This document shows positions 11,824 to 52,355 of a stretch of DNA of 64,000 bases, piece by piece. Under the pieces are notes generated by a model. The model saw only the letters and a list, made by a program, of their open reading frames with translations, did not search any database and was not told the DNA's origin. The position numbers and the translations under genes were made by a program. Position 1 is the first letter of the stretch; every line of letters starts with the position of its first letter. Where the stretch lies: the NCBI GenBank assembly GCA_900544965.1, contig UQXE01000002.1, positions 15,385-79,384 on the forward strand, read 5' to 3'. The DNA is from an uncultured Eubacteriales bacterium (GTDB lineage Bacteria > Bacillota > Clostridia > Christensenellales > CAG-138).

Positions 11824-11824
11824 T

Positions 11825-22179: not shown

Positions 22180-22296
22180 GTTTTCGCTCCTCCTAATGGA
22201 TAGTTTACAGGTCGGTCATATTGACCATGTATTTCGACCAATATTGAAAGTGTTGATTTCTATATTGATCGTATGTTATTATACCTTTGTCGAGTC

Positions 22297-22325
22297 TTGA
22301 CTGTCAACGAAGAATTCGATATATA
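22297..22325 (+). promoter_or_regulatory. candidate sigma-A promoter of the ArsR-like gene with overlapping palindrome
   Basis: TTGACT, 17-nt spacer, TATATA. The -35 is part of the perfect palindrome TTGACtGTCAA (22297-22307). A second palindrome, GGTCATATTGACC, lies at 22214-22226. Confidence 0.35.
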
Positions 22326-22359
22326 TTATTATAACGAATAACAGCTATGGAGGTATACA

Positions 22360-23442: not shown

Positions 23443-23460
23443 AGTCTGCGGCTATGAGTT

Positions 23461-23491
23461 AAAAAACCCCGCTTATTAAGCGGGAATTTTT
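23461..23491 (+). terminator. intrinsic terminator after the ArsR-like gene
   Basis: A-run, CCCGCTT-att-AAGCGGG stem, then AATTTTT. Confidence 0.7.
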
Positions 23492-23719
23492 GTATGTGTG
23501 TGACGGGTGCTGTAAAGTTATAAGCTGTTTAAAAAGTTCTGATTTGTGACGCCTTTCGCCTAGGCGTGGTAAGTGTGAGCGTAGGCCCATAGGTATATAT
23601 TCTAGCCGCTCCCTCAAAACACATGATATATTTTATATACTCACCCGGCTTAATACTACATTAATACGCACTTATTCCATCGAATTAATTTGAATACTAA
23701 AATAATATAAAGTTATTTG

Positions 23720-23748
23720 TTGACGAGTGACTAAAATTGTGATACAAT
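23720..23748 (+). promoter_or_regulatory. candidate sigma-A promoter of the cas operon
   Basis: TTGACG (23720-23725), 17-nt spacer, TACAAT (23743-23748) preceded by TGa (extended -10). Lies about 33 nt upstream of the cas3 ATG. Confidence 0.5.
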
Positions 23749-23780
23749 AAAACAACAAATATCAAGGAAAACTGAGATTT

Positions 23781-25982: not shown

Positions 25983-26034
25983 CGGCGCAAATAATCAATA
26001 AAATAACTTTCTTGGAATGGAAAGGAGGGAGCAG

Positions 26035-26694
26035 ATGGGTATAGGTGTTAGTATAAGGACATGGGGAGAACTGGCGCTGTTTTCGCGCCCTGAGATGAAG
26101 GTAGAGCGGTGTAGTTACGACGTTATAACGCCGTCGGCAGCCAGGGGTGTTCTCGAAGCCATCTACTGGCATCCCGGCATACGCTGGGTCATTGACAAAA
26201 TCTATGTGATGAAGCCGATTCAGTTTACCAGCATACGAAGAAACGAGGTTAAGGGTAAATTATCCGCTAGAAACGCTTTAAGCGCAATGAACGGCTCAAA
26301 GACGCAGCTTTACGTAAGCAGCAGGGAAAATATCGTCCAGCGGGCCTCAATATTGCTTAGCGATGTAGAATATGTGATCGACGCTCATTTCGAATTGACC
26401 GACAAAGCAAACGAATCCGACAACTCCGGCAAGTTTAAGGATATAATCATGAGGCGCCTAAGAAAGGGTCAGTGTTATCATACCCCGTATTTTGGCTGCA
26501 GGGAGTTTCCGGCAAGGTTTGAGCTGTTTGAGGGAGATGGGGTTGAAACCGCATATCAGGATACGGAAAAGGATCTGGGCTATATGCTTTATGACTTAGA
26601 TTACTCGGATCCGGAGAACATTCAGCCCATGTTCTTTCGCGCAGTGCTTAAAAACGGGGTTTTGGATTTGAGTAATTGCGAGGTGATACGATGA
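26035..26694 (+). CDS. cas5c: type I-C Cas5c (Cas5d) pre-crRNA endoribonuclease
   Basis: The N-terminus (IRTWGELALFSRPEMKVERCSYDVITPSAARGVLEAIYWHP) is the hallmark Cas5d block. The ATG at 26035 follows AAGGAGGGAG and is preferred to 26017. Confidence 0.9.
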   Translation: MGIGVSIRTWGELALFSRPEMKVERCSYDVITPSAARGVLEAIYWHPGIRWVIDKIYVMKPIQFTSIRRNEVKGKLSARNALSAMNGSKTQLYVSSRENIVQRASILLSDVEYVIDAHFELTDKANESDNSGKFKDIIMRRLRKGQCYHTPYFGCREFPARFELFEGDGVETAYQDTEKDLGYMLYDLDYSDPENIQPMFFRAVLKNGVLDLSNCEVIR

Positions 26695-28574
26695 TATTGC
26701 AGTCGTTGGTTCAATATTATGAAGCGCTTGAAAGCAAGGGGCGTATCACAAGGCCTGGCTGGTGCAGGGCTAAGGTTTCGTTTGCCCTGAGAATTTCTGA
26801 ATCCGGAGAGCTTTTGGACGTAATCAGGCTGACAAACGATGTTGAGATCCGGCAAAAGAAGGGCGGCATTAAGATCATAAAGGAACCCCAGCCGCTGATC
26901 GTTCCGGAAATGGTTACAACCCGCACCATAAAGGTAACCGCAAACTTTCTGTGCGATAATACCAGTTACATTTTGGGTGTAGACAATAAGGGAAAGCCTG
27001 CACGATCACGGGAATGTTTTAACTGTGCCAAGGAGAAGCATCTGGAGCTGTTGGATTCAGTGGACAGTGCAGCTGCAAAGGCGGTTAAAAATTATTTTCA
27101 AAACTGGAACCCTGAAACGGCTATGGACAATGCTGCGCTGAACGATTATCTGGATGAAATGATGTCTGGCGGCAATTTGATTTTTGATATAGCTAATTTC
27201 GGGTATGCTCATGAGGACAAGGCCATAAGGGAAGCGTGGGAACGCCATCTTGAACGCGCCGAGGCGGATGGCGAAGATGCGGGGACTTGCCTGATAACGG
27301 GCAGGCGTTCCAAGATAGCCAGAATACACGGAAACATAAGGGGCGTAAGGGGAGCTCAGTCCAGCGGCGCTTCGCTTGTGTCGTTCAACGACCCGTCCTT
27401 TGAATCATATGAAAAAAAGCAAAGCTTCAACGCCCCGATAAGTACCTACGCCGCTTATGCGTATACCACAGCCCTGAATCACCTGATATCAGACTCCCAG
27501 CACTCCACCGTAATAGGAGACGCCACGATTGTATACTGGTCTGAGGATGGAAATGAAGAATATCAGGACATCTTTTCTGCCGTGACAGAGCCTAAGGAGG
27601 ACAACTATGAGATAGTTGACGGCGTGTTCAAAAAACTGGAGGCGGGAAGGGCCGTTGACGTTGACAACGTTATTGGCCATATAACGTTGGATAAGCGGTT
27701 CTACATCTTAGCGATAGCGCCCAACGCGGCAAGGCTGGCTATTAGGTTTTTCTATCAGGACAGCTTTGAAAAAATATTAGGGCACCTTAAGGATCACTAC
27801 GACAGGATGGAGATAGCGAGACCCGAGTGGGAAACCAGCAAACGTAAATACATTGGCGCCTGGCGGATGCTTCAGGAGACTGTAAATAAAAAGTCAAAGG
27901 ATAAAAAGCCCGTTTCCAGCATGGCGTCATCGGTATTGCGCGCGATGATATCGGGGGGAAAATATCCGGAGACATTATATCTTAACACCCTGGGCAGGAT
28001 TTACGCGGAGCAGGACGACGAGGAATCCAAAATCTCTAAAATAACCAGCGGCAGGGCCGCGATCATCAAGGCCTATCTATTGAGAAATAAAAACTACGAT
28101 AAGGAGGAAATTCCTATGGGATTGAATGTAGCCTGTGATAACGTAGCCTATGTGCTGGGCAGGACGTTTTCGGTATTGGAGGCGATACAGGAGGATTCAA
28201 ATGATAATAGAAATGACAAAAAAAATGAAAAAAGAAAGAAATCTATAAATTCTACAATTAAGGATAGATACTTTAACGCCGCGTGCGCTACGCCGGCGTC
28301 CATCTTCCCAGTCCTGTTCAAATTAAAGAACAGCCATATAAGAAAGATTGATAGTCCAAATATGGTAATCCATTATGAAAAGCTGTTGACGGAGCTTCAG
28401 TCAAAGGTGCCGGCCGCGGAGCATCAGTGCGCCGCTTATCCCAAGCGGCTTTCGCTTGAGGAACAGGGCATGTTTGTCTTAGGCTATTATCATCAAAATG
28501 AGAAGCGCTACGAAAAGAGATCAAAGGATAGTGATAACAAATCAAATGAAAATAAAGGGCAGGAGGCTGAATAA
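26691..28574 (+). CDS. cas8c: type I-C large subunit Cas8c (Csd1)
   Basis: Starts MILQSLVQYYEAL, the typical Csd1 N-terminus. ATGA overlap with the cas5c stop. About 627 aa. Confidence 0.88.
   Translation: MILQSLVQYYEALESKGRITRPGWCRAKVSFALRISESGELLDVIRLTNDVEIRQKKGGIKIIKEPQPLIVPEMVTTRTIKVTANFLCDNTSYILGVDNKGKPARSRECFNCAKEKHLELLDSVDSAAAKAVKNYFQNWNPETAMDNAALNDYLDEMMSGGNLIFDIANFGYAHEDKAIREAWERHLERAEADGEDAGTCLITGRRSKIARIHGNIRGVRGAQSSGASLVSFNDPSFESYEKKQSFNAPISTYAAYAYTTALNHLISDSQHSTVIGDATIVYWSEDGNEEYQDIFSAVTEPKEDNYEIVDGVFKKLEAGRAVDVDNVIGHITLDKRFYILAIAPNAARLAIRFFYQDSFEKILGHLKDHYDRMEIARPEWETSKRKYIGAWRMLQETVNKKSKDKKPVSSMASSVLRAMISGGKYPETLYLNTLGRIYAEQDDEESKISKITSGRAAIIKAYLLRNKNYDKEEIPMGLNVACDNVAYVLGRTFSVLEAIQEDSNDNRNDKKNEKRKKSINSTIKDRYFNAACATPASIFPVLFKLKNSHIRKIDSPNMVIHYEKLLTELQSKVPAAEHQCAAYPKRLSLEEQGMFVLGYYHQNEKRYEKRSKDSDNKSNENKGQEAE
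28116..28574 (+). CDS. cas11c: candidate internally translated small subunit Cas11c (nested in-frame in the cas8c 3' end)
   Basis: A perfect AAGGAGG (28101-28107) lies 8 nt upstream of an in-frame ATG at 28116. Product would be about 152 aa (MGLNVACDNVAYVLGRTFSVLEAIQ...). Confidence 0.5.
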   Translation: MGLNVACDNVAYVLGRTFSVLEAIQEDSNDNRNDKKNEKRKKSINSTIKDRYFNAACATPASIFPVLFKLKNSHIRKIDSPNMVIHYEKLLTELQSKVPAAEHQCAAYPKRLSLEEQGMFVLGYYHQNEKRYEKRSKDSDNKSNENKGQEAE

Positions 28575-29467
28575 TGATGTCAGAGGCAATTAAAAACAGG
28601 TATGAATTCGTAATTTTATTCGATGTGGAAAACGGGAATCCAAATGGGGACCCTGACGCGGGAAACCTGCCAAGGATGGATCCCGAAAGCGGATACGGCC
28701 TGGTAACGGACGTTTGCATCAAGCGGAAGATAAGGAACTACGTAGAAGCGGTCAAGGAGGATGCTCCGGGCTATAAAATATATATAAAAGAGGATGTTTC
28801 GCTCAACCGAAGTGACAGCAGCGCTTACGAATACCTTGGAATCAATGCCAGCAACGTAAAGGACGCTAAAAAGAGCGATCCTGACCTTGACAGGAAGATA
28901 CGGGATTTCATGTGCCAGAACTTCTTTGATATACGTACGTTCGGTGCGGTTATGACCACCTTTGTAAAGGCGGCGCTGAACTGCGGCCAGGTGCGCGGAC
29001 CGGTGCAAATCGGATTTGCGCGCAGCATCGACCCTGTAATAAGCCAGGAGGTCACCATCACCCGCGTTGCGATTACAAAGGAAGAGGATACCGAAAAAAA
29101 GAGCACGGAGATGGGACGAAAGAGCATAATCCCCTATGCGCTTTACAGGGCGGAAGGCTATGTATCGGCAAATCTTGCCCGTAAAACAACCGGCTTCTCC
29201 GAAGAGGATCTAGAGCTATTGTGGGAAGCCATCCTAAACATGTTTGAAAATGACCGTTCGGCCGCCAGAGGAAAGATGGCTGTCAGGGAGCTTATTGTAT
29301 TTAAGCACAGCAGCGAATTGGGCGATTGTCCAGCTCATAAGCTGTTTGACACAGTGGAGGTTAAGCGCAGGGACGACGTGGAATATCCAAGACAATATGG
29401 GGATTACAGCTTAGAGATACATGAGGACAGAATTCCGGCTACAGTAGAGCTTATAAGAAAGTTATAA
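28574..29467 (+). CDS. cas7c: type I-C Cas7c (Csd2) backbone subunit
   Basis: 297 aa. NRYEFVILFDVENGNPNGDPDAGNLPR.D...G.GLVTDVCIKRKIRNY is the signature Csd2 N-terminus. Confidence 0.92.
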   Translation: MMSEAIKNRYEFVILFDVENGNPNGDPDAGNLPRMDPESGYGLVTDVCIKRKIRNYVEAVKEDAPGYKIYIKEDVSLNRSDSSAYEYLGINASNVKDAKKSDPDLDRKIRDFMCQNFFDIRTFGAVMTTFVKAALNCGQVRGPVQIGFARSIDPVISQEVTITRVAITKEEDTEKKSTEMGRKSIIPYALYRAEGYVSANLARKTTGFSEEDLELLWEAILNMFENDRSAARGKMAVRELIVFKHSSELGDCPAHKLFDTVEVKRRDDVEYPRQYGDYSLEIHEDRIPATVELIRKL

Positions 29468-30132
29468 TGGAATACAGGGAAGACGAATATCTGATGCTTT
29501 CGGGCATACAGCACTTTGCTTTTTGCAGGAGGCAATGGGCCCTTATCCACGTTGAGCAGCAGTGGCAGGAAAACGAACATACTGTTATAGGCGAGCTGTT
29601 CCATAAAAGGGCCCATGACCCCTATTTTCATGAAAAAAGAAATGATCTGATTGTCAGCAGGGGAGTGCCCGTCCATTCCAGATCGATGGGGGTAAGCGGA
29701 GTATGCGATATCATTGAGTTCTATAAGGTTGAGGACGGCATTTCCCTTCACGGGCGCAGGGGGCTGTATAGGGTATATCCGGTTGAATATAAAAAGGGGC
29801 ATCCAAAGGAGACGAGGGCAGACCAGCTGCAGCTTGCGGCTCAAGCAATGTGCCTTGAGGAGATGATGTGCTGTAAAATCGACGAGGGAGCTATATTTTA
29901 TGGGGAAACGCGCCGAAGGGACAGAGTGGCCATTACGGAGGAGCTTAGAGAAGAGGTAGTCAAAACCTTTAAGGAGATGCATGAGCTGTTTAATAGAGGA
30001 TACACCCCAAAGGTAAAATGGTCAAAGAGCTGCAATGCGTGCTCACTCAAAGACCTATGCCTTCCAAAGTTAGGCAGGTCGCCCTCCGTTGCGGAGTATA
30101 TTAAGAATGCGCTCGCAGAGGATGATATATGA
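29467..30132 (+). CDS. cas4: Cas4 RecB-like exonuclease
   Basis: 221 aa. N-terminal Cys (FAFCRRQW), nuclease core (D.IE....L..VEYKKG) and C-terminal C..C....C (CNACSLKDLC). Confidence 0.9.
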   Translation: MEYREDEYLMLSGIQHFAFCRRQWALIHVEQQWQENEHTVIGELFHKRAHDPYFHEKRNDLIVSRGVPVHSRSMGVSGVCDIIEFYKVEDGISLHGRRGLYRVYPVEYKKGHPKETRADQLQLAAQAMCLEEMMCCKIDEGAIFYGETRRRDRVAITEELREEVVKTFKEMHELFNRGYTPKVKWSKSCNACSLKDLCLPKLGRSPSVAEYIKNALAEDDI

Positions 30133-31160
30133 AAAAGCTGCTTAACAGCCTGTATGTTACATCTCCTGAAAATTACCTTTCACTGGACGGGGAGAACATT
30201 GTTATACTTGAAAACGGTCAGGAGCTGGGCAGAATTCCGCTGCATAACTTAGAGGCGGTAATTTCGTTTGGATACAGAGGAGTCAGCCCAGCGCTGATGG
30301 GCAAGTGTTCAGAACAGAATATTTCTCTATGCTTTATCAGTCCTAACGGCAGATTTCTTGCAAGAGTGACAGGGGGCGTTAAGGGAAATGTGATATTAAG
30401 AAAAAAGCAGTACCGGGTTTCTGAGGATGAAAAACTAAGCTTTGAAATAGCTAAAAATTGCGTGTTGGGTAAAGTATATAATTGCCGCTGGGTTTTAGAG
30501 CGGGCCACAAGGGATCACAGCACACAGATAGATCTTGAAAGGGTTAAGCGGGCGTCCTCATTTCTTCAGCAATCGCTTACAAATATTTCATTAAGCCGAT
30601 ATATGGCCCAGCTGCGCGGATATGAGGGAGAAGCCGCGAGCGTCTATTTTGGGGTTTTTGATCAGCTAATCCTTCAGCAGAAGAAGGAGTTTACGTTTCA
30701 TGGCAGAAGCAGAAGACCTCCTCTTGATAATGTAAACGCCATGTTATCCTTTATATATACGCTGCTTGCTAACACTATTGAATCAGCTTTGGAGTCCGTA
30801 GGGCTTGACCCATACGTAGGCTTCATGCATACAGATAGGCCAGGAAGAGCGTCCTTGGCGCTGGACTTAATTGAAGAGCTGCGTTCGGTTCTGGCCGACC
30901 GCTTCGTGCTTACAATGATCAATAAAAAAATGATAACTGGCCGGGGGTTCTCAAAAAAGGAGGATGGGGCGGTAATGATGAAGGATGATACGAAAAAGCT
31001 CATCCTGACCGCATGGCAGAATAAGAAGAAGGATGTAATCACCCATCCCTACCTTGGAGAAAAGGTGGAATGGGGTATGATACCATTCGTTCAAGCCATG
31101 CTGCTGGCCAGACACCTGAGGGGCGATATAGACGAATATCCACCGTTCCTTTGGAAGTAG
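30129..31160 (+). CDS. cas1: Cas1 integrase, type I-C
   Basis: 343 aa. LYV......LS.DGENIVI, GYEG.AA..YF, N..LSF.YT.L, G.DPY.GF.H. Confidence 0.93.
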   Translation: MKKLLNSLYVTSPENYLSLDGENIVILENGQELGRIPLHNLEAVISFGYRGVSPALMGKCSEQNISLCFISPNGRFLARVTGGVKGNVILRKKQYRVSEDEKLSFEIAKNCVLGKVYNCRWVLERATRDHSTQIDLERVKRASSFLQQSLTNISLSRYMAQLRGYEGEAASVYFGVFDQLILQQKKEFTFHGRSRRPPLDNVNAMLSFIYTLLANTIESALESVGLDPYVGFMHTDRPGRASLALDLIEELRSVLADRFVLTMINKKMITGRGFSKKEDGAVMMKDDTKKLILTAWQNKKKDVITHPYLGEKVEWGMIPFVQAMLLARHLRGDIDEYPPFLWK

Positions 31161-31172
31161 GTGATAGCTTTG

Positions 31173-31460
31173 ATGGTTCTTATAACTTACGACGTTAACA
31201 CAGAAACCGCCGAAGGGAGGACCAGACTGAGGAGAGTAGCTAAACAGTGTGTTAATTATGGAACGCGCGTACAGAACTCTGTCTTTGAGTGCCTATTGGA
31301 CAAAGCCCAATGCGTGGCGCTTAAGTCTATGTTAACCGATATCATTGACGAAGAGCTTGACAGCCTAAGATTTTATTATCTGGGAAACAATCATAGGACA
31401 AAAATTGAACATATTGGCGTTGATAAGGGTATTGATATGGAACAGCCGCTGATCTATTGA
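31173..31460 (+). CDS. cas2: Cas2
   Basis: MVLITYDV........RLRRVAK.C.NYG.RVQNSVFEC. The ATG at 31173 lies 8 nt after AGGTGA. The ORF track starts at the GTG at 31161. Confidence 0.9.
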   Translation: MVLITYDVNTETAEGRTRLRRVAKQCVNYGTRVQNSVFECLLDKAQCVALKSMLTDIIDEELDSLRFYYLGNNHRTKIEHIGVDKGIDMEQPLIY

Positions 31461-31656
31461 ACGGAAAAGTCTAAGTACGGAAGCGTAGGCGTCTATTAAT
31501 ATCGCTTTATAGAGGATAATTAAAGAGATTGGCGTTTACAGGTTGAGTTTATTTGTCGCTAACGGTTTTATCCATTGACCATAAGGATTTTAACCTCTGA
31601 AGCTATTTTAATAATATTTATAAGCTTGTATTATTTAGTTATATATACCCTCAGTT

Positions 31657-31687
31657 GACAAGGGCAACAACCTTGTCGGCGTTTTGT
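31657..31687 (+). terminator. hairpin plus short T-run, about 200 nt downstream of cas2 (weak terminator candidate)
   Basis: GACAAGG-gcaacaa-CCTTGTC followed by ggcgTTTTgt. Confidence 0.3.
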
Positions 31688-31936: not shown

Positions 31937-32812
31937 ATGGAATACAGACGAAGACGTAGGCGCCGTGGGACAAGAAACGGAGGTTCGGGCGCTGGCGGAG
32001 TGGTTTTAGCAATAGTGCTGGTTGCGGGTATGATCTATTTTGTCACCGCATCCTCCGCCGGCACCTGGATCGCGCAAAACGTAGTCGCGCCGCTGTTTGG
32101 TACGGCTACCCACAGTCCGGATCCGTCGGCAACGCCTGATGATAACCCCGCGATAAACTCGGGCGACCTCGTTACACGCGAGATTGATCTGCCATCGATA
32201 TCCTGCTATATGTTGCAGATGGGTGCATTCGAATCCAAAGAAAATGCCGAAAAGCTAGCCAACGATATCAAAGACCAAGGGGCGGCCGGTTACGTATATC
32301 AGGACAGCGAACGCTTCAGGGTGCTTGCGTCGGGATACGGAAGCGAGAGCGACGCCAAGAGCGTAAGGGATAGGCTAAAGGATGAGGGCCATGACTGCAC
32401 GGTATTCAACCTAGCGGCATCAGGAGCAAGTTTCCGCGTTACAGCGACGGAGGCGCAGCTGAACAATGTTGAAAGCGGTTTTAAAGCCCTGCTCGATACG
32501 TGCAATGAAATCATGGAGGCGTCAATATCTTTTGATGAAAATAAATCCCAGGTTTCAGAGGGAAAAGCCGCAGTCGGAGAAATTCTTACAAAACTCAAAA
32601 ATGCAGTAGAACCGCTGAAATCCGTTACATCCTCCGACGAGGTGCTGTTGAGGGTTATTGAATGCTATGATAGATATAGCAGTTTATTATCCGCACTTTC
32701 CAACGAACAAACAGAAAGTTTTGTGGATTTTTCGTCGAAAATGAAGTATACTCAATTACAGTTAACGCATGAATACGTTAAGCTGATGGAGGCGCTGTCC
32801 TCCCAAGGCTGA
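31937..32812 (+). CDS. SPOR domain-containing membrane protein
   Basis: 291 aa. Poly-Arg N-terminus, one TM helix (VVLAIVLVAGMIYFV), then a SPOR-like block (YMLQMGAFESKENAEKLANDIKDQGAAGYVYQD.ERFRVLASGYGSESDAKSVRDRLK). Confidence 0.7.
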   Translation: MEYRRRRRRRGTRNGGSGAGGVVLAIVLVAGMIYFVTASSAGTWIAQNVVAPLFGTATHSPDPSATPDDNPAINSGDLVTREIDLPSISCYMLQMGAFESKENAEKLANDIKDQGAAGYVYQDSERFRVLASGYGSESDAKSVRDRLKDEGHDCTVFNLAASGASFRVTATEAQLNNVESGFKALLDTCNEIMEASISFDENKSQVSEGKAAVGEILTKLKNAVEPLKSVTSSDEVLLRVIECYDRYSSLLSALSNEQTESFVDFSSKMKYTQLQLTHEYVKLMEALSSQG

Positions 32813-32831: not shown

Positions 32832-33191
32832 ATGTTAATATCGGATGTTATCAGGATACTGGACGCAAATATCCTATGTGGAGCCGACCGCACAGATTTG
32901 GAGATAGACTCCGCATTTGGATCTGATATGATGAGCGACGTGCTGGCGTATGTCACGCCCACAACCTTGGTCTTAACAGGCATGATAAATCCTCATGTGA
33001 TACGCACCGCAGAGATGCTTGATGTGCGATGTATAGTATTCGTGCGTGGAAAGCAGGTAAGCGATGATATCATTGAAGAGGCCGACGAGCAGGGAATGGT
33101 GCTTTTGTCAACGACCAAAACCTTATATACATCAAGCGGTCTCTTGTATCAGGCGGGGCTTCCCGCATGCACAAGGAGCGGACAGGCATGA
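32832..33191 (+). CDS. DRTGG domain protein
   Basis: 119 aa. The size and the pattern (L......DVLAYV.P..LVLTG....HVIRTAEM.....IVFVRGK....D.I..A.E.G..LL.T...) fit the small DRTGG family. Assigned from memory. Confidence 0.65.
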   Translation: MLISDVIRILDANILCGADRTDLEIDSAFGSDMMSDVLAYVTPTTLVLTGMINPHVIRTAEMLDVRCIVFVRGKQVSDDIIEEADEQGMVLLSTTKTLYTSSGLLYQAGLPACTRSGQA

Positions 33192-33610
33192 CGGTATTAT
33201 ATAGGGATATATATCCAGTTGAGAGAGGAAATTTCGCCATGGCTGGCGATGCGTCGAGCAAGATAAAGCGGCTGCTTAAACGTATGGATGTAGACCCCGT
33301 CTTGATTAGGGAAGTTGCGATATGTTCATATGAACTTGAGCTTAATCTTGTAATACACTCGCTCGGAGGCGAACTAATCCTTGAGATGACGGAAAATTGC
33401 CTTACACTTACCAGCTCGGATTGCGGTCCAGGGATACCCAATACCGAACTTGCGATGAAAGAGGGATACTCCACGGCGCCGGAGGACGTGCGCATGATGG
33501 GATTTGGAGCGGGAATGGGCCTGCCCAATGTTAAAAGGCATAGCAGCCGATTTACAATTAAATCCGAAGTTGGAAAAGGTTCCATAATAACGGCTGAATA
33601 TGACTTGTGA
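33188..33610 (+). CDS. GHKL-type ATPase / RsbW-SpoIIAB-like serine kinase domain protein
   Basis: The ATG at 33188 overlaps the upstream stop (ATGA). N-box (E.ELNLVIHS), G1 (DCGPGI) and G2 (GFGAGMGLPNV). About 140 aa. Confidence 0.75.
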   Translation: MTVLYRDIYPVERGNFAMAGDASSKIKRLLKRMDVDPVLIREVAICSYELELNLVIHSLGGELILEMTENCLTLTSSDCGPGIPNTELAMKEGYSTAPEDVRMMGFGAGMGLPNVKRHSSRFTIKSEVGKGSIITAEYDL

Positions 33611-33644
33611 CCTGTAGGGTTTTCAAGAAACGGGAGGATGAAGT

Positions 33645-34949
33645 ATGTATAGGCATTCGGTTCGAATAGACAGGCGCAAATGTGTCGGATGCACTAACTG
33701 TATAAAGACCTGTCCTACTGAGGCGATAAGGGTTCAGCAGGGAAAGGCTAAGATGATGGATGAGCGCTGCATTGACTGCGGAAGGTGTCTTTCCGCCTGC
33801 CCGCATCATGCAATGGTTTCTGTTACAACGCCAGTTTCGGCTCTTGGAACATTTAAATATAACATAGTAATACCGTCCACTACACTCTATTCGCAATTTA
33901 AGGGCTTGGAGGATCTTGAGGATATATACGCGGGACTTTACGCAATGGGCTTTGACGCCATATATGAAGAGGCCAAAGCGGTTGAAATATTCTCTGAAGC
34001 TATAAGCAGATATATTCACAGCTCAGATGCCATATATCCGGTTATACCATGCGCATGCCCTGTAGTGCCAAGGCTGATTACGGCGATGTATCCAAACCTA
34101 ATAGACAATCTTGCCCCGTTTGTAGCGCCAAACGAGATAGCCGCGCGTGTTGCAAAGGAAGAGTTCTGCGAGGCCGTAGGAGTTACCAGAAATGAGGTAG
34201 GCGCTTATTATATCTCTGCGTGCGCGGCCGAAATGACGCAGATAAAAAACCCGCTGGGGATCTCAAAAAGTGAAGTTAACGGGGTTTTGTCGGTTAGGGA
34301 TGTATTTACAACCCTGCGAAGTTATGTTGGAAAAAACGAAGCCAACCCAAGAAAGATCGCGTACCGCGCAGGAGCGTTTGGCTTGGGCGCCGCCGTTATA
34401 GGAGGCATCAGTTCAGCCGTGGGCACAGGACATCATCTTGCGGTGGATGGAATCTACAATATCATACAATGCTTGGATGAAATAGATAACGAACGATTGA
34501 ACGACCTGGTTCTGATGGAGCCGCTTGCCTGTGCTGGCGGTTGCATTGGAGGGCCGCTTTCTGTTGAAAACCAGTTCGTAGCCAAAAACCGCAACAGGCG
34601 CATCGCCAATTCACAGCCTCGTTTTGATCTTGAAAACGATGAGCATGTGCAGAAATATATAGGATCGCCCTTGATCCGTTTTGATAAGGAATTCCAGCCG
34701 TTTAACATGATGAAGCTAAGCGACGACGTGGTGGAGGCAATGAGGATGATGGACAGGCTTGAGTGTATAAATAAAAACCTTCCGGGACTTGACTGCGGCT
34801 CATGCGGTTCGCCTACATGCAGAACACTGGCGGAGGATATCGTGCGCGGACATGCCGTGGAGATGGATTGCATATTCAAGCTTAGGGATAAGGTCAGGCA
34901 AATGGCGCAGGAAATGGTGGATTTGGCGAGCGCTCAGAAGCGTGGCTAG
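33645..34949 (+). CDS. [FeFe]-hydrogenase-like Fe-S protein (putative sensory type)
   Basis: 434 aa. Two ferredoxin motifs (CVGCTNCIKTCP, CIDCGRCLSACP). H-cluster-domain-like region with PCACP (res 135-139), SACAAE (res 191-196) and EPLACAGGCIGGP (res 292-304). C-terminal CGSCGSPTC motif. Confidence 0.8.
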   Translation: MYRHSVRIDRRKCVGCTNCIKTCPTEAIRVQQGKAKMMDERCIDCGRCLSACPHHAMVSVTTPVSALGTFKYNIVIPSTTLYSQFKGLEDLEDIYAGLYAMGFDAIYEEAKAVEIFSEAISRYIHSSDAIYPVIPCACPVVPRLITAMYPNLIDNLAPFVAPNEIAARVAKEEFCEAVGVTRNEVGAYYISACAAEMTQIKNPLGISKSEVNGVLSVRDVFTTLRSYVGKNEANPRKIAYRAGAFGLGAAVIGGISSAVGTGHHLAVDGIYNIIQCLDEIDNERLNDLVLMEPLACAGGCIGGPLSVENQFVAKNRNRRIANSQPRFDLENDEHVQKYIGSPLIRFDKEFQPFNMMKLSDDVVEAMRMMDRLECINKNLPGLDCGSCGSPTCRTLAEDIVRGHAVEMDCIFKLRDKVRQMAQEMVDLASAQKRG

Positions 34950-34988
34950 GGTAAATTCGTTTATTAAATTAAGGAGGACATTTTAATT

Positions 34989-35333
34989 ATGAAAGCTGAA
35001 GAATTGGCCGTATTGATAGATGGAGCTATAAAAACGCGGGAAGGCAGGGACAATGAGATATTATGCGGCTGCACATGCGATTTGTTGAGCTGGGTAATGG
35101 CTAAAGGCGTGGCTGGCTGCGCATGGATAACCGTTCAGACCCACATGAACGTAATAGCGGTGGCGTCTCTTCACGATATGGCCTGCGTTATTTGCCCTGA
35201 GGGTATGTCGCCTGAACCGGCTACGGTGGCCAAGGCCGATGAAGAGGGGATAGCTATAATATCTTCTCCGTATACCGCATATAAAATCTGCTGCATTATG
35301 AATCAGCATGGAATTAAACCCGAGCGGGATTGA
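34989..35333 (+). CDS. small DRTGG-like domain protein (second copy)
   Basis: 114 aa. Same size class and similar hydrophobic periodicity as the DRTGG protein at 32832, but Cys-rich (CGCTCD, C..ITV, ACVICP). Weaker assignment. Confidence 0.5.
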   Translation: MKAEELAVLIDGAIKTREGRDNEILCGCTCDLLSWVMAKGVAGCAWITVQTHMNVIAVASLHDMACVICPEGMSPEPATVAKADEEGIAIISSPYTAYKICCIMNQHGIKPERD

Positions 35334-35334
35334 T

Positions 35335-36042
35335 ATGTTGCTTGCATGTGACCTACATATTCATTCGTGCCTGTCTCCGTGCGCCGATATGGCCATGACG
35401 CCCAATAATTTGGTTAACATGGCATATCTTAAGGGCCTTGATATGATCGCTGTGGCAGATCATAACAGCGCTAAGAACCTGCCTGCATGCAAGGCAGCTG
35501 CAGATGAGAGAAATATGCTCCTTTTGCCCGCTATTGAGGCGGAAAGCAGGGAGGAGGTTCATGTGCTTTGCTATTTTCCAACTGTGGAATCAGCGATTGC
35601 TATGGGCGACTACCTGTATCAACATCTGCCGGATATTAAAAACAGTCCGGAGCTGTTTGGTGAGCAGATAGCCATGAACTCCGAGGATGAGCCTATATAC
35701 AGGGAAGAAAAGCTCCTCATACAATCCACGACGCTATCCATTGATAGTATTGCAGACCGGTGCAGAGCGTTCGGCGGCGTGCCTGTGCCGGCACATATAA
35801 ACCGCTCGTCGAATTCGCTGATATCCAGTCTCGGATTTGTTCCTCCTCAAAGCGGATTCACTGCGTTGGAGGTATATCGGGGGCTGCCCGCGGCTGGCGT
35901 GGACGTTGACCAATACCACATACTGTATTCATCGGACGCGCATTATCTGGAAAATATACTTGAGAGGGAGAACTTCATAAACGTAAGGGAAAGGAGCATT
36001 GGTTCGGTACTTGAATATCTGTCCAGCAAAAATGATGTTTAA
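35335..36042 (+). CDS. PHP-domain phosphoesterase
   Basis: The ATG lies 1 nt after the upstream stop. CDLHIHS..SPC and AVADHNS motifs, plus later H and D residues typical of the PHP fold. Confidence 0.8.
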   Translation: MLLACDLHIHSCLSPCADMAMTPNNLVNMAYLKGLDMIAVADHNSAKNLPACKAAADERNMLLLPAIEAESREEVHVLCYFPTVESAIAMGDYLYQHLPDIKNSPELFGEQIAMNSEDEPIYREEKLLIQSTTLSIDSIADRCRAFGGVPVPAHINRSSNSLISSLGFVPPQSGFTALEVYRGLPAAGVDVDQYHILYSSDAHYLENILERENFINVRERSIGSVLEYLSSKNDV

Positions 36043-36143
36043 AAATGATTGTCATAAAAAGTTTGGTTTTCAAATTATAGGAAATAATGTATTATTATAA
36101 TTGGAGTATTGGGACAGAATATCAATTACAGGAGGATTTACTA

Positions 36144-36725
36144 ATGGAAAAAGATAAGCTGAATACCAAGAAACTGATACTGGCCGGCATTTTTTTAGTA
36201 ATAATAGTGCTGATGACGTCCTTGCTGCGCGTGCCGGTGTATCAGACCACCGATAGCGGTACTTCTCCCGTAATCCGTAATAACGGCGATCCGGCGGGAT
36301 CGTACCTGAATCTTGGCGACGCGCCTATATATGCAGCGGCCTTGGTACTTGGCGGGCCGCTTGGAGCGCTTGTAGCAGCTATAGGTTCATGCCTTGCGGA
36401 TCTATTCGTGGGAAGCTCGGTCTATGCTATTCCAAGCTTTATTATTAAGGGCTGCATGGCTTTATTGGCGGCTAGGCTGCTTAAAAAGGGAAGCGGCTGG
36501 ATGGAGCTTATAAAGGTATGCCTGTATTGCTCACTTATAATGATTGCGGGATATTTTCTGTTTGATCTTGTAATAATGGGCGATTACGGGGTTGCATCGT
36601 TCGCGTTGCCGCTTGATTTGCTACAAACTGTGGTTAACACTATCCTCGCTGTACCCGTATTAAAAGTCCTAAGCGGGAAACTCTATAAAGAAAAGGATAA
36701 TGATTTTATTGTTAGGGTGAAATAG
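36144..36725 (+). CDS. ECF-transporter S-component-like membrane protein (substrate unknown)
   Basis: About 193 aa from the ATG at 36144 (AGGAGG upstream). Five or six TM helices. General resemblance to ECF S components only. Confidence 0.45.
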   Translation: MEKDKLNTKKLILAGIFLVIIVLMTSLLRVPVYQTTDSGTSPVIRNNGDPAGSYLNLGDAPIYAAALVLGGPLGALVAAIGSCLADLFVGSSVYAIPSFIIKGCMALLAARLLKKGSGWMELIKVCLYCSLIMIAGYFLFDLVIMGDYGVASFALPLDLLQTVVNTILAVPVLKVLSGKLYKEKDNDFIVRVK

Positions 36726-36728
36726 CGA

Positions 36729-37469
36729 ATGAAATTAACCGTTTTAGGAAAATACGGGCCGTTTCCTGCAGCTACAGGAGCGTGTTCAGGCTATCTTGTT
36801 GAAACCGATCAGGCGTCTATCATTCTGGACCTTGGAAATGGCGCCCTTAGCCGGCTATTGTATAAAAAACCTAGGCTCACAGTGGACGGCGTAATATTGT
36901 CCCACCTCCACAGCGACCATATGTCGGATATGCTTGTGCTGAGATACGCGCTAAAACAGCTTCATTCAAGGGATAGGTCCATTCCCACACCCTTGTCGGT
37001 TGTCGCGCCTTCCGAGCCTGAGCTTGAATTCAGGCAGCTGATATCCTCCGGCGTTTATGACATGATAGCCGCCAAGGATGGTATGAAGCTGAAATTCAAG
37101 GATTTAACGGTTGTTTTGCACAGAATGACTCATACTGTTGTTTCCTATGCGGTGGAGCTTATGAGCGGAGGCAAACGGATGGTCTATACGGGGGACACAG
37201 GTTATAACATGCGCCTTGAATCCCTCTGCGGCGGAGCGGATCTGCTGCTTGCCGATACATGTTACCTAAACGCCGATAAAACCACGGAAAACGCTGCGCA
37301 TTTGACTGCCGGCGAGGCTGGGAGGCTTGCGAAACGATGTGGCGTAAAGCAGCTTATCTGTACTCACATATGGGGCGGCAGTATTGACGATGCCGGCGTA
37401 CTTGGCGAAGCCAGGGCCGAATTCCCAACCGCGGAGGTTGCCGTGGAAATGCGCACATATGAGGTTTAA
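36729..37469 (+). CDS. MBL-fold metallo-hydrolase
   Basis: 246 aa. Starts MKLTVLG..G. Contains the HLHSDH motif (H-x-H-x-D-H), and later TGDTG and H residues. Confidence 0.8.
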   Translation: MKLTVLGKYGPFPAATGACSGYLVETDQASIILDLGNGALSRLLYKKPRLTVDGVILSHLHSDHMSDMLVLRYALKQLHSRDRSIPTPLSVVAPSEPELEFRQLISSGVYDMIAAKDGMKLKFKDLTVVLHRMTHTVVSYAVELMSGGKRMVYTGDTGYNMRLESLCGGADLLLADTCYLNADKTTENAAHLTAGEAGRLAKRCGVKQLICTHIWGGSIDDAGVLGEARAEFPTAEVAVEMRTYEV

Positions 37470-37485
37470 ACTCACTATTGTATAA

Positions 37486-37513
37486 ATACGCCTGTTAAAT
37501 TTAACAGGCGTAT
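37486..37513 (+). terminator. perfect hairpin after the MBL gene
   Basis: ATACGCCTGTTAAA/TTTAACAGGCGTAT palindrome, followed by AGTTATTT. Confidence 0.55.
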
Positions 37514-37559
37514 AGTTATTTAATCATATATTGTAATTTTCAAGGATGGTAGGGTGTAA

Positions 37560-38339
37560 ATGGAAAGGCTTAATGATTTTTTAAGAAAATACGATAAAAT
37601 AGCCATAGCGCTGTCGGGAGGCGCGGACAGCGCCTGTTTGCTAAAGGCAGCCGTTAAAGCTATAGGCTCTAAAAACGTTTTGGCCATAACGGTCCACAGC
37701 GAATTCATGCCCGATGCGGAGCTCGCAATGGCCAGGCGCTTTGGCCAGCTTGCGGGTGTAGAGCATATGGTTATAGAAGTATGCGCTCTTGATAACGAAT
37801 TTGTCGCCGCAAATGGACCAAAGAGGTGTTATTATTGCAAGCGCGCAATATTTACCGAGATTCTTAATCAAGCATGGATTCATGGAATAAAGGCTGTAAT
37901 GGATGGCACCAATGCTGATGATACTTCAGACTACCGTCCAGGAATGGAAGCGTTAAGTGAACTCGGCATTATAAGTCCATTTTTAGAGCTTAACATGAAA
38001 AAAACGGATATTATACAGCTTTTTGAAGATACAGACGATTTAAGCGTTCCATCCTATGCCTGTCTGGCTACCAGAGTGCCTACTGGAACGAAGATTACAC
38101 TACAAGACCTGGAAAGGGCCGACCGGGGCGAAACGCTGCTTAGATCCATGGGGTTTTCAAAACTTAGGGTGAGGATTCACGGCGATTGTGCTAGGCTGGA
38201 ATTATCAGTGGATGAGATTGACAAGGCTTTTGAAATGAAAAGCAATATATCAAATGCGCTAAAATCGGTTGGATTCAGGTACGTATCGCTTGATCTGGAT
38301 GGTTATGTTCAGGGAAATATGAACGAAAGGCGGGCCTAG
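37560..38339 (+). CDS. larE: LarE, ATP-dependent sulfur transferase for nickel-pincer cofactor (PP-loop ATP pyrophosphatase)
   Basis: 259 aa. PP-loop (ALSGGADSACLL). CYYC plus ACLATR cysteines. Adjacent to larB and larC. Confidence 0.85.
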   Translation: MERLNDFLRKYDKIAIALSGGADSACLLKAAVKAIGSKNVLAITVHSEFMPDAELAMARRFGQLAGVEHMVIEVCALDNEFVAANGPKRCYYCKRAIFTEILNQAWIHGIKAVMDGTNADDTSDYRPGMEALSELGIISPFLELNMKKTDIIQLFEDTDDLSVPSYACLATRVPTGTKITLQDLERADRGETLLRSMGFSKLRVRIHGDCARLELSVDEIDKAFEMKSNISNALKSVGFRYVSLDLDGYVQGNMNERRA

Positions 38340-38344
38340 GTGTT

Positions 38345-39034
38345 ATGAACGCTGAAATATATGACGACCTCGGCTTTGCAAAGGTTGATCTGAGCCGGGA
38401 AAGGCGCCAGGGATATCCTGAGGTGATTTATGGATGCGGCAAGACTAACGAACAGATATGCGGGATATGCGGTTCATTGCTCTCAAACGGGGGAAAGCAT
38501 ATATTGGTGACCAGAATAGGCAAGGGCTGCGCTTGTGATCTAGAGCACAGGTTTGGGGAAGTATCCTATTCAGAGGCGGCTTCGGTCGCAATCGTCAACC
38601 CTCGGAAGCTGCACCCGCAGGGCAGCGTAATCGTGGCGACTGCAGGCACTTCAGACATATGCGTGGCCGAAGAAGCCGCGATTACGGCGGAAGCCATGGA
38701 TGCGGATGTTATGCGGATATATGATGTCGGAGTATCCGGAATACACCGTATACTTGCTTATAAGGACGCATTGAGTACGGCAAACGCCATAGTAGTGGCT
38801 GCCGGCATGGACGGAGCACTGCCAAGCGTTGTAGGCGGCCTTACGGACCGTCCGGTTATAGCCCTGCCTACGAGTGTAGGATATGGGGCGTCATTCAACG
38901 GTCTTGCCGCTCTGCTGTCAATGCTTAATTCCTGTTCAGCAGGCGTAACGGTAGTAAATATCGACAACGGGTTTGGCGCGGGATTCGCGGCCGGAAGGAT
39001 AAATCGGCTAATTGTAGGAGGAGGGAAAGTATGA
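38345..39034 (+). CDS. larB: LarB, nickel-pincer cofactor biosynthesis carboxylase/hydrolase (PurE-like)
   Basis: 229 aa. D..R..R.GYPEVIYG.GKT, then a PurE-like half (VATAGTSD..VAEEA, AGMDGALPSVVGG). Confidence 0.88.
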   Translation: MNAEIYDDLGFAKVDLSRERRQGYPEVIYGCGKTNEQICGICGSLLSNGGKHILVTRIGKGCACDLEHRFGEVSYSEAASVAIVNPRKLHPQGSVIVATAGTSDICVAEEAAITAEAMDADVMRIYDVGVSGIHRILAYKDALSTANAIVVAAGMDGALPSVVGGLTDRPVIALPTSVGYGASFNGLAALLSMLNSCSAGVTVVNIDNGFGAGFAAGRINRLIVGGGKV

Positions 39035-40251
39035 GGACACTTTATATTGATGCGTTTTCAGGAATAAGCGGCGATATGTTTTTAGGGGCGCTTATAGACT
39101 GCGGCGCTGATTTTGATTTTATCCTGTCTGCGCTTAACGGCCTGGGGATTTCGGATGAGTTCCACATTGAGGCAGCCAGGATTAATAGACGGGGTATCTG
39201 TGGAATTGATCTTAACGTACGCCTTAAGCATGGTCATAGCCACCATGACGGCGTTTCACACTCACATGCTGGCTACAGAAACTACTCTCAGATAAAGTCG
39301 CTTATTTTGGATTCGCAAATCAGCGCAAACGTCAAAGAACGGGCGCTTCGCATATTCGGACGCGTTGCGGAGGCCGAGGCGTACGTACATGGCGTAACAG
39401 AGGATGAAGTTCATTTTCATGAGGTTGGGGCGGTTGACTCAATAGTGGACATAGTTGGCGTTTCAGCCGCGCTTGAATCCCTGGGGATAAAGAAAATAGT
39501 ATCGTCTCCTCTTAATCTCGGCGGCGGAACCGTAACCTGTGACCATGGAATTTTGCCTGTACCCGCGCCCGCTACGGCTAGAATTTTGTTTGGGTGTCCC
39601 TGCTACGGCTCAGATCCAAAGCACGGGGAACTCACCACGCCTACGGGAGCCGCCTGCGCTATGGAGGCCGAGCGTTTTGGAGAGCTGCCCTTAATGGTTC
39701 CGGAAGCGGCAGGCTATGGATTTGGAAAAAGGGATACAGGAACGCTTAACGCCTTGCGGATAATGATGGGTGAGGAGCGAGACGGTTCCTGCGGTAAGCC
39801 CACAGATAAAAAGGCTGGCAATGTAGCGCTGATAGAAGCCAATATTGATGATATGACAGGAGAAAGCCTGGCATTTGCCGCCAAGAAGCTTATGGAGGAA
39901 AGCGCCTTAGACGTTTGGATCACTCCGATTATAATGAAAAAGGGACGTCCTGCGCATGCTTTATCGTGTATGTGCGAACTGGCGGATAAAGACCGCCTTG
40001 TTGAAGTGATATTTAAACACACGACTACCTGGGGATTACGTATTGACGTTAAAACACGGACTTTGGTCACAAGAAGCACCTGTGTAGCTAATACAGAATA
40101 TGGCCCAATAAGATTTAAAACGGATGGCGTAAGAATAAAAGCGGAGTATGACGACTGTGAACAGACGGCTCAAAGGAACGATGTGGGATTGACTGAGGTG
40201 GAAGCCGCTTTGATTCGAGCGGCACGTGGCGCCTCTAAACACGATAAATAA
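39031..40251 (+). CDS. larC: LarC nickel insertion protein (DUF111)
   Basis: 406 aa. The start (LYIDAFSGISGDMFLGALID.GAD) is the family signature. A His-rich stretch (KHGHSHHDGVSHSH) is present. Start overlaps the larB stop. Confidence 0.88.
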   Translation: MRTLYIDAFSGISGDMFLGALIDCGADFDFILSALNGLGISDEFHIEAARINRRGICGIDLNVRLKHGHSHHDGVSHSHAGYRNYSQIKSLILDSQISANVKERALRIFGRVAEAEAYVHGVTEDEVHFHEVGAVDSIVDIVGVSAALESLGIKKIVSSPLNLGGGTVTCDHGILPVPAPATARILFGCPCYGSDPKHGELTTPTGAACAMEAERFGELPLMVPEAAGYGFGKRDTGTLNALRIMMGEERDGSCGKPTDKKAGNVALIEANIDDMTGESLAFAAKKLMEESALDVWITPIIMKKGRPAHALSCMCELADKDRLVEVIFKHTTTWGLRIDVKTRTLVTRSTCVANTEYGPIRFKTDGVRIKAEYDDCEQTAQRNDVGLTEVEAALIRAARGASKHDK

Positions 40252-51562: not shown

Positions 51563-51595
51563 ATGTATAAGTCCAATATTACGGAGGTTATAGCG

Positions 51596-51904
51596 ATGGA
51601 AATATGCAGGAATATGACCGGGCAAACTCTAACGGTTGCTTTACGTGGAGAGTTAGACCATCATGCAGCCGAGCAAACGCGAAACACCATAGACCTACTG
51701 ATCAACGAACTCAGACCTACGGAACTGGTGCTTGACCTTAGCGGGGTTACGTTTATGGACAGTTCAGGCTTGGGCGTTGTGCTTGGACGCTACAGGCTGC
51801 TTTCTACTAGAGGGGGAAAGATGTATATAACTGGTGCAAACCGAAGCGTTGATAGAATACTAAAGATGGCAGGCATATATGCTCTTGTCGAGCGCAGGGG
51901 ATAG
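51596..51904 (+). CDS. spoIIAA: anti-sigma-F factor antagonist SpoIIAA (STAS)
   Basis: L.GELDHH.A.........I.......[17 protein letters not shown] (phosphorylatable Ser in DSSGLG). The ATG at 51596 follows GGAGG. Confidence 0.88.
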
Positions 51905-51914
51905 GGGGAAAAAT

Positions 51915-52355
51915 ATGTACCGCAATGAAATGCATGTGGAGTTCTTGTCCATATCACAAAATGAGAGCCTGGCTAGGATGGTTGTAGCTGCCTTTATAAC
52001 CCAGCTTAATCCTACTATAGAGGAATTGACCGATATACGCACAGCCGTCAGCGAGGCCGTTACAAACAGCATAATACACGGATACGGAAATAGCAACGGT
52101 ACCGTTTATATGGATTGCGAAATAGAGGATCAGCTGCTTACGGTAGCAATCCGTGACGAAGGCAAAGGAATCGAAAATATTGAGCTTGCGCGGCAGCCGT
52201 TTTATACATCTATGCCCACTATGGATCGGTCTGGAATGGGCTTTGCGGTTATGGAGGCCTTTATGGACTCGGTTGAAGTAACCTCAGAATTGGGCGTTGG
52301 AACCACCGTAACTATGAAAAAGACCATTGGAAGCGTGGTTATGGGTGATGAATGA
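51915..52355 (+). CDS. spoIIAB: anti-sigma-F factor SpoIIAB (serine kinase)
   Basis: N-box ([13 protein letters not shown]), DEGKGI, SGMGF. Lies between spoIIAA and sigF. Confidence 0.9.

Follow-up and report, generated by a model that had tools for sequence, protein, structure and literature searches.

A five-gene module around a Group D-type [FeFe]-hydrogenase homologue with an altered [2Fe] pocket in an uncultured lineage of Clostridia

We analyzed a cluster of five genes in a 64,000-nucleotide stretch (the window) of contig UQXE01000002.1, from assembly GCA_900544965.1 of an uncultured Eubacteriales bacterium. An earlier note had proposed the cluster as a candidate H2- or redox-sensing module, and its layout is borne out by the open reading frames (ORFs) and by Pfam. 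The genes lie on the plus strand and encode, in order, a DRTGG protein (DRTGG-1), a SpoIIAB-like GHKL ATPase (the kinase), an [FeFe]-hydrogenase-like protein, a second DRTGG protein (DRTGG-2) and a PHP-family phosphoesterase (Table 1). Gene calls made independently on metagenome contigs that encode an identical central protein give the same five ORFs. The ATG of the kinase gene overlaps the TGA of the DRTGG-1 gene as ATGA (33188-33191), with an AAGGAG ribosome-binding site just 5' of it, and the PHP gene begins 1 nt past the stop codon of the DRTGG-2 gene. The exact hydrogenase-like protein is listed in 943 blocks of an assembly collection; the contigs that were read are metagenome assemblies.

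DRTGG-1 matches the Pfam DRTGG family with E 2e-9 and DRTGG-2 does so weakly (E 8e-4). The kinase matches HATPase_c (E 9e-8), and its nearest NCBIfam model is the anti-sigma F factor. The hydrogenase-like protein carries two Fer4 domains, Fe_hyd_lg_C (4e-19) and a C-terminal PF04060 'FeS' domain (5e-12), with no PAS match in the Pfam search. The PHP protein matches Pfam PHP with E 2e-4, and a profile of its own family performs much more strongly. No STAS, sigma factor, receiver or DNA-binding domain was found by Pfam in the five-gene cluster itself.

Table 1. The five-gene module and other features of the window
Feature	Position	Strand	Description
DRTGG-1	32832-33191	+	119 aa, single DRTGG domain
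Kinase	33188-33610	+	140 aa, SpoIIAB/RsbW-like GHKL ATPase or serine-kinase-type
[FeFe]-hydrogenase-like protein	33645-34949	+	434 aa, Group D (M2e)-type
DRTGG-2	34989-35333	+	114 aa, DRTGG-1 paralogue
PHP	35335-36042	+	235 aa, PHP-family metal-dependent phosphoesterase
SPOR-domain protein gene	31937-32812	+	291 aa; Pfam SPOR E 1e-12; 19-nt gap to DRTGG-1
Energy-coupling factor (ECF)-transporter S-component-like and metallo-beta-lactamase (MBL)-fold hydrolase genes	36087-37469	+	Identified by Pfam; syntenic with the module in the relative L006
spoIIAA (STAS)-spoIIAB-sigF	51563-53091		Ordinary sporulation operon; sigF at 52327-53091

The cysteine motifs quoted for the central protein are present: PCACP (C138), SACAAE (C193), EPLACAGGCIGGP (C296, C300) and CGSCGSPTC (C384, C387, C392). 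Together with C409 the last of these forms a C-terminal Cx2Cx4Cx16C motif (C384-x2-C387-x4-C392-x16-C409), and two [4Fe-4S] motifs are found at the N-terminus. In a hidden Markov model (HMM) alignment of the family C138, C193, C296 and C300 are the L1, L2 and L3 cluster ligands of solved [FeFe] hydrogenases, with SSACP placed on TSCCP, PCAAK on MPCxxK and ACxGGCxGG on MxCxxGCxxGG. The top matches of the family profile in the PDB are [FeFe] hydrogenases only. The AlphaFold2 model of the protein (pLDDT 92.3, pTM 0.89) has CbA5H, DdH, CpI and HydA, the HydABC subunit, as its top Foldseek matches (TMq 0.65-0.69, E 1e-21 to 1e-18). A Nar1-type or other Fe-S family is rejected, since in the alignment the cysteines fall on the ligands of the H-cluster and the closest relatives belong to Group D of the [FeFe] hydrogenases.

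More than 7,300 homologues of equal length and architecture are found, mostly in metagenome-assembled genomes (MAGs) of Clostridia. The sequences that we compared include a canonical clade and a divergent clade to which the window protein belongs. The equivalents of the H-cluster cysteines CpI C300, C355, C499 and C503 are invariant across both clades, and in an alignment of 14 sequences with identities as low as 46% C138, C193, C296, C300, C384, C387, C392 and C409 are all invariant. The position of CpI C299, the proton-relay cysteine, is occupied by A137, where most members of the divergent clade have Asn or Ser, and the position of CpI M353 is occupied by S191. The central protein is thus a non-prototypical, putatively sensory [FeFe]-hydrogenase homologue, as had been suggested, and is a member of Group D (M2e), the family of TamHydS.

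Group D (M2e) of Calusinska is characterized by two N-terminal clusters, a C-terminal Cx2Cx4Cx16C motif, the lack of a PAS domain, and Ala at the position of CpI C299 (PMC3561251, PMC8163306). The class was defined in 2010, and biochemical work on its member TamHydS dates from 2019-2020 onward (PMC8163306, PMC10407848, PMC13104023). Genes for trimeric bifurcating hydrogenases follow those of the class, with protein kinases encoded nearby (PMC3561251), so that neither the protein class nor this proximity is new. We took the TamHydS coding sequence from the supplementary information of PMC13104023, a copy that contains scanning errors; compared with the HydS of a Thermoanaerobacteraceae MAG (L076) it gives 67-75% over well-read segments and 51% where the scan is garbled. 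TamHydS aligns to the window protein over its whole length with corresponding numbering: A137 is shared, Tam E289 is E292, Tam C379 and C404 are C384 and C409, and Tam K58 is position 57.

The five genes are conserved together. One genome per species was scanned, yielding 80 loci in which ORFs were called and from which family HMMs were built. Flanks of the relatives were readable to 10 kb, and linkage to HydABC was scored on loci with at least 8 kb readable downstream. Among the 60 genome loci with enough flanking sequence, 54 carry all five genes in unchanged order (46 of 51 canonical and 8 of 9 divergent loci), which confirms the expectation that the genes co-occur in relatives. A close relative of TamHydS, the MAG L076, has the same module. 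The co-occurrence is far beyond chance, and the five-gene unit is a real, widely conserved and recognizable module. The canonical exceptions are a kinase-HydS pair alone in L054, L059 and L084 and a DRTGG-kinase-HydS arrangement in L057 and L071. All of these retain kinase-HydS, which makes the kinase the core partner; of the four partners it alone nearly always adjoins HydS. In the open literature that we searched the five-gene unit is not described as such, with mention only of a 'histidine kinase-like ATPase' or of 'protein kinases', and we found no functional work on the DRTGG, kinase or PHP partners, including by locus tags (Cthe_0335 and others). This agrees with the view in the earlier note that the signalling partners are uncharacterized.

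Canonical and divergent modules differ in what follows them. The five genes are followed by NuoE and HATPase genes in 34 of 41 canonical loci compared with none of 8 divergent loci (Fisher p = 1.4e-5). The canonical downstream operon encodes a bifurcating hydrogenase in the order NuoE-HATPase-ferredoxin (Fd)-NuoF-HydA. In Acetivibrio mesophilus (L074), for example, Pfam identifies DRTGG, HATPase, HydS, DRTGG, PHP, NuoE, a second HATPase, 2Fe-2S ferredoxin, NuoF and HydA, in agreement with the published layout of Cthe_0335-0342. The 64 kb window contains no candidates for NuoE, NuoF, HydA or radical-SAM maturases, and the genes found there in this search are housekeeping genes only.

Several loci depart from the common arrangement. 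L005, a divergent-clade genome whose protein is 72% identical, has an orphan HydS-like gene (9932-11305), and all four partners are missing within 10 kb of it. L084 is an Oceanispirochaeta MAG, and in L059 a 637-aa hydrogenase-like ORF follows HydS. The canonical loci L055 (1896-7511), L064 (188-8266) and L068 (15079-19337) have a second hydrogenase gene set beside the module, comprising a NuoF-like fusion of ~1,000-1,080 aa and a HydA of 580-620 aa. In L085, an intermediate-clade MAG (GCA_003324335.1), HydS is separated from DRTGG-2 by an inserted DUF4258 gene and a small ORF (11324-11868); together these resemble a toxin-antitoxin system, and the module tolerates the insertion. Apparent DRTGG-kinase and kinase-HydS fusions in L062, L016 and L010 were rejected, as these long ORFs are upstream extensions that overlap the neighboring gene in another frame.

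The divergent clade consists of the window protein and relatives 64-98% identical to it (L005-L018, P0001-P0048), found in Christensenellales-like MAGs; the window protein shares only ~42-48% identity with canonical members. No full-length sequence has lost any of the 16 Fe-S cysteines, and 86 of 114 columns conserved in canonical members are retained. Within the clade dN/dS is 0.01-0.12. Between the window and L006 the module genes are 63-75% identical and the flanking genes 35-60%. Polymorphism of HydS within the species (9 synonymous and 0 non-synonymous differences from L001) was discarded as evidence, because the contigs had been retrieved by exact protein identity. The divergent HydS-like protein is not decaying, and both the protein and its partners are under strong purifying selection. 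Two intermediates bear on the history of the clade. P0050 keeps the residues PAPKWE at six positions of the [2Fe] pocket described below, has Met at the position of Tam K58, and is linked to a SPOR gene and not to HydABC; P0059 is partly degenerate. As intermediates of the P0050 type are already unlinked, separation from HydABC seems to have come first and the change in the pocket second.

Pocket positions were mapped to CpI by HMM alignments and to TamHydS by alignment with the recovered TamHydS sequence. At window positions 79, 137, 162, 196, 249, 255 and 57 116 of 192 sequences have the exact signature P-A-P-K-W-E-K, and every one of these 116 is canonical. The window protein reads T-A-P-E-A-I-M at these positions, and the divergent clade is variable. 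Ala137 and Pro162 (CpI P324) are the canonical residues. The replacements are Thr for Pro at position 79 (CpI P231), Glu for Lys at 196 (CpI K358), Ala for Trp at 249 (CpI F417, Tam W246), Ile for Glu at 255 (CpI V423, Tam E252) and Met for Lys at 57; Ile252 additionally replaces Tam S249. Among columns that are at least 95% conserved in canonical Group D, 7 of 9 pocket or proton-pathway columns have switched compared with 12 of 105 others (p = 3.6e-5, for a list of pocket positions compiled in part with the switched columns already known). The seven replaced positions, including the equivalent of K358, are 96-100% conserved in canonical Group D.

The earlier note had listed the change of Lys to Glu in the L2 motif. 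However, it missed the weight of this change, which lies in the invariance of the Lys (100% of 121 canonical sequences) and in the replacement of six other pocket positions. CpI K358 is equivalent to K228 of CrHydA1, a conserved Lys that contacts the distal CN ligand. In the divergent clade (n=62) the residues at this position are E27, R12, K12, G4, Q4 and V3. The proton pathway of Group D is also changed. In TamHydS this pathway is E252-E289-S249-D265 (PMC10407848); the window protein keeps E292 and D268, and Ile255 and Ile252 stand in place of E252 and S249. Members of the divergent clade have L, F, I or M at the position of Tam E252 and I or V at that of Tam S249. With the K358 Lys and six other near-invariant pocket or relay positions replaced, the H2 sensing proposed for the window protein is doubtful. 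Canonical activation of H2 appears unlikely, and the protein probably no longer uses a canonical H-cluster.

The kinase profile finds SpoIIAB, the anti-sigma F factor, as its best match in the PDB (E 7e-11, residues 27-139, full length) and matches RsbW weakly (E 0.013), in support of the original assignment. Its N-box (YELELNLVIH), G1 (DCGPGI) and G2 (GFGAGMGL) motifs are invariant and are shared by the two clades. The kinase has only 30% identity with the SpoIIAB of the window, which is encoded with SpoIIAA and sigma F 16 kb downstream of the module. The absence of STAS and sigma factor genes noted earlier holds for the cluster and not for its surroundings, where this operon has its own kinase and an ordinary role in sporulation. 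Given the presence of this operon, sporulation-type partner switching is retained beside the SpoIIAB-like paralogue of the module.

The nearest solved relative of the DRTGG-1 profile is the DRTGG insert of the CBS-pyrophosphatase 3L2B. DRTGG-1 was found in 12 divergent and 55 canonical loci, and across 29 aligned sequences D32, M34, S35, D36, T49, G50, R58, T59, A60, R72 and K74 are invariant. DRTGG-2 is a paralogue of DRTGG-1 (26% identical, E 8e-10) that does not have the invariant basic residues of DRTGG-1 and has conserved CDLLSWVM and WITVQTH motifs. A comparison of the DRTGG-1 profile with the window's own SpoIIAA by hhalign gave a probability of 1.5%, with no detectable homology to this STAS protein. 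The PHP protein has a complete metal-site pattern, with D6, H8, H10, D42, H43, E68/E73/E74, H76, H154, D201 and H203 invariant in 33 sequences, and its family is as large as that of HydS. The motifs and conservation of the partners support a predicted active, ATP-dependent signalling cassette.

Based on this evidence we favor, with some confidence, the interpretation that the cluster serves a Group D-type HydS as its signalling module in a derived lineage, in which the module is unlinked from HydABC, the [2Fe] pocket has been rebuilt and an Fe-S sensor drives a circuit of partner proteins. In most Clostridia the module heads the bifurcating HydABC operon and presumably informs HydABC of H2 or redox status. 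In the derived lineage it would have left HydABC, with a later rebuilding of the pocket responsible for holding and protonating the [2Fe] sub-cluster. The HydS-like protein could then be a sensor of redox state or electron input that uses its Fe-S clusters and not a canonical H-cluster, and its state may determine whether the neighboring kinase binds ATP or transfers phosphate. The pair of DRTGG proteins would be partners or substrates of the kinase, or a ligand-binding adaptor, and the PHP protein may hydrolyze the phospho-signal, whether protein-bound or nucleotide. The output is predicted to act in trans on targets encoded elsewhere. A partner-switching-like circuit of this kind, as proposed in the earlier note, can reasonably be inferred and is a fair description of an unsolved problem.

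Several observations weigh against this interpretation. The interaction of the partners, phosphorylation by the kinase and the output are steps that we infer, and loss of the [2Fe] site is read from sequence only, from a list of pocket positions chosen partly in retrospect. The position of K358 is still Lys in 12 of 62 divergent-clade sequences and Arg in another 12, and the window protein retains Ala137, Ser191, Leu294 and Pro162 as in TamHydS. The DRTGG proteins are not homologues of STAS proteins, and the nearest relatives of the PHP protein act on nucleotides or nucleic acids and not on proteins. Additionally, in L006, the closest relative with readable flanks and a member of the divergent clade, a hydrogenase-type operon lies 7.4 kb from the module on the opposite strand. 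Some tie to hydrogen metabolism may thus remain, possibly with HydEFG present. Finally, the C-terminal cluster of TamHydS does not respond to H2 (PMC13104023), so that even the canonical signalling route is putative.

The best of the alternatives is that the window protein is a bona fide H2 sensor, in which [2Fe] supplied by HydEFG sits in a reshaped pocket, senses H2 as in TamHydS and regulates a hydrogenase elsewhere in the genome. The four ligand cysteines, including the bridging one, are invariant, the protein is under strong purifying selection, and Glu292 and Asp268 are kept beside Ala137, Ser191 and Leu294 as in TamHydS. The L006 operon (1-1790, minus strand) is of the HydABC type with a HATPase (NuoE-HATPase-Fd-(NuoF)); it directly follows mreC-mreD-PBP2 and has no sensory module of its own, the only one found being that 7.4 kb away. 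Some members of the divergent clade thus have a bifurcating-type hydrogenase. However, Glu takes the place of the Lys whose variants prevent assembly of the H-cluster (PMC9516953). Ile takes the place of Tam E252, the sole candidate relay to the azadithiolate (adt) amine, where the variants E252V and E252D leave <0.01% of H2-oxidation activity, essentially abolishing it (PMC10407848). The equivalents of CpI P231 and F417 are also lost, the variation at the K358 position within the clade looks like released constraint, and no hydrogenase or maturase is encoded within the window. We regard an H2 sensor as rather unlikely.

A second alternative concerns the signal and not the sensor. The PHP protein could degrade a small phospho-nucleotide for which the DRTGG proteins are receptors, with the GHKL protein acting as an ATP-dependent switch bound to HydS. 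The best matches of the PHP profile in the PDB are RNase AM (7UG9; RNase AM/TrpH), the esterase 3E0F, EndoQ and the pAp phosphatase Cv1693 (2YB1), with E 8e-9 to 3e-7, and in NCBIfam the N-terminal PHP domain of TrlF and a pAp phosphatase. No PHP-type protein tyrosine phosphatase of the CpsB/YwqE type is among the matches, and the role of protein phosphatase suggested previously thus finds no support in these relatives. DRTGG domains occur in the nucleotide-regulated insert of CBS-pyrophosphatases, and the invariant Arg/Arg/Lys/Thr-Gly set of DRTGG-1 is missing from DRTGG-2. However, in CBS-pyrophosphatases the nucleotide is bound by the CBS domains and not by the DRTGG domain, no nucleotide cyclase or synthetase is encoded in the module, and the argument proceeds purely by analogy. 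A nucleotide-signal circuit is in our view unlikely.

It is very improbable that the module is no regulator at all and instead an accessory redox or assembly unit, for electron transfer or as a chaperone of Fe-S or hydrogenase maturation, with a gene order that is inherited synteny. In favor of this reading, DNA-binding and output domains are missing from the module, co-transcription ties canonical modules to the enzyme beside them, and the synteny of the SPOR gene with the module shows that lineage-specific neighborhoods are heritable. Against it, a GHKL protein of the SpoIIAB type whose ATP-binding motifs are intact is a component of signalling, purifying selection has maintained the module since it left HydABC, and TamHydS turns over very slowly and has a high affinity for H2, as a sensor should (PMC8163306).

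The window module resembles several known systems in part. The window module shares with TamHydS and Group D the two N-terminal [4Fe-4S] clusters, the four-Cys H-domain, the Cx2Cx4Cx16C motif, the lack of PAS, Ala at the position of CpI C299, Ser/Thr at that of CpI M353 and an adjacent histidine-kinase-like ATPase, and close relatives of TamHydS such as L076 stand in the same five-gene module. It differs in the loss of Lys (K358), Pro (P231), Trp (F417 position), Glu (Tam E252), Ser (Tam S249) and Lys (Tam K58), in not being followed by HydABC, and in belonging to a SPOR-linked, Christensenellales-like branch. TmHydS of Group C (M2f) is likewise a putative sensor that has lost the proton-relay Cys, has a C-terminal [4Fe-4S] cluster and is found beside bifurcating hydrogenases and kinase or phosphatase genes. 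However, Group C proteins have PAS domains and are linked to PP2C-type phosphatases or histidine kinases, whereas the window module has no PAS and uses DRTGG and PHP proteins.

Similarly, the SpoIIAB-SpoIIAA-SpoIIE and RsbW-RsbV-RsbU systems combine a small GHKL kinase with alpha/beta partners of ~115 aa and a metal-dependent phosphoesterase. In the window module the partners are DRTGG and not STAS proteins, the esterase is PHP and not PP2C, no sigma factor is present in the cluster, and the genuine spoIIAA-spoIIAB-sigF operon is separate. In the HoxBC-HoxJ-HoxA system of Cupriavidus necator a low-activity hydrogenase also serves as a kinase-coupled sensor. However, HoxBC is an unrelated [NiFe] metalloenzyme, and its output through a histidine kinase and a response regulator has no counterpart encoded in the window module.

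Eukaryotic Nar1/NARFL (IOP1) has the [FeFe]-hydrogenase fold and keeps its Fe-S cysteines with no functional [2Fe] catalytic site. It differs from the window protein in its independent origin, in the eukaryotic cytosolic iron-sulfur protein assembly (CIA) pathway, in its other domains and in the absence of kinase, DRTGG and PHP partners, and in the window protein loss of [2Fe] is only a prediction. We nevertheless put forward, tentatively and with some doubt, that in a widespread branch of gut and anaerobic-digester Clostridia a Group D H2 sensor has become an Fe-S sensor without an H-cluster, a bacterial parallel to the Nar1-type relics that would be wired to a hitherto undescribed cassette of SpoIIAB-like kinase, DRTGG pair and PHP esterase, without STAS or PP2C proteins and acting in trans.

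The gene directly upstream of the module encodes a SPOR-domain protein. A homologue lies directly upstream of DRTGG-1 in at least 29 loci from both clades, including many canonical Christensenellales-type loci with HydABC, and the adjacency is also seen in L006 (8288-9163), L085 (8103-9149) and L086 (8237-9178). In Acetivibrio the SPOR gene is absent from this place, which is taken by a PRK-like kinase gene. Terminator-like hairpins are found only at 31654-31680, before the SPOR gene, and at 37486-37513, after the MBL gene. The SPOR gene is possibly co-transcribed with the module, and the adjacency may reflect synteny of the lineage rather than function. The ECF-S-like and MBL genes are uncertain members of the system. 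The nearest NCBIfam model of the MBL-fold hydrolase is a cyclic-nucleotide-degrading phosphodiesterase, with a score far below the cutoff. The region 36087-40251 also holds larE-larB-larC-like genes (NAD_synthase-like, AIRC and Ni_insertion) for the nickel-pincer cofactor, with no larA seen nearby. Downstream of its module L006 shares only the ECF-S, MBL and LarE-like genes with the window.

On the other side of the SPOR gene lies a complete type I-C cas operon (23781-31460; cas3, cas5d, cas8c/csd1, cas7, cas4, cas1 and cas2). No CRISPR array is detectable in the 64 kb window, and no repeats occur in the 477 bp that separate cas2 from the SPOR gene. A gene for an RCC1-repeat protein (20755-22179, minus strand), with an in-frame 24/48-nt tandem repeat of ~5 copies at 20871-21016, adjoins an ArsR-type helix-turn-helix gene and the cas operon, and local G+C is lower there (0.39 for 22001-24000).

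That Group D proteins are putative sensors accompanied by a kinase was known. What is new here is a lineage that is unlinked from HydABC and has a remodelled pocket, and that keeps the Fe-S ligands and all four partners. Of the 'sensory' [FeFe] hydrogenases of Groups C and D, the model enzyme TamHydS has been studied alone, without the products of its neighboring genes. The survey defines an invariant core of kinase and HydS, with two DRTGG proteins and a PHP esterase that are near-constant, as the set of proteins for co-expression. A natural lineage that has the whole cassette with a rebuilt pocket provides a 'pocket-dead' comparator by which Fe-S or redox sensing can be told apart from the sensing of H2. 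Should the organism be as common in gut samples as the 943 listings suggest, the module may bear on the handling of hydrogen and redox balance in the gut.

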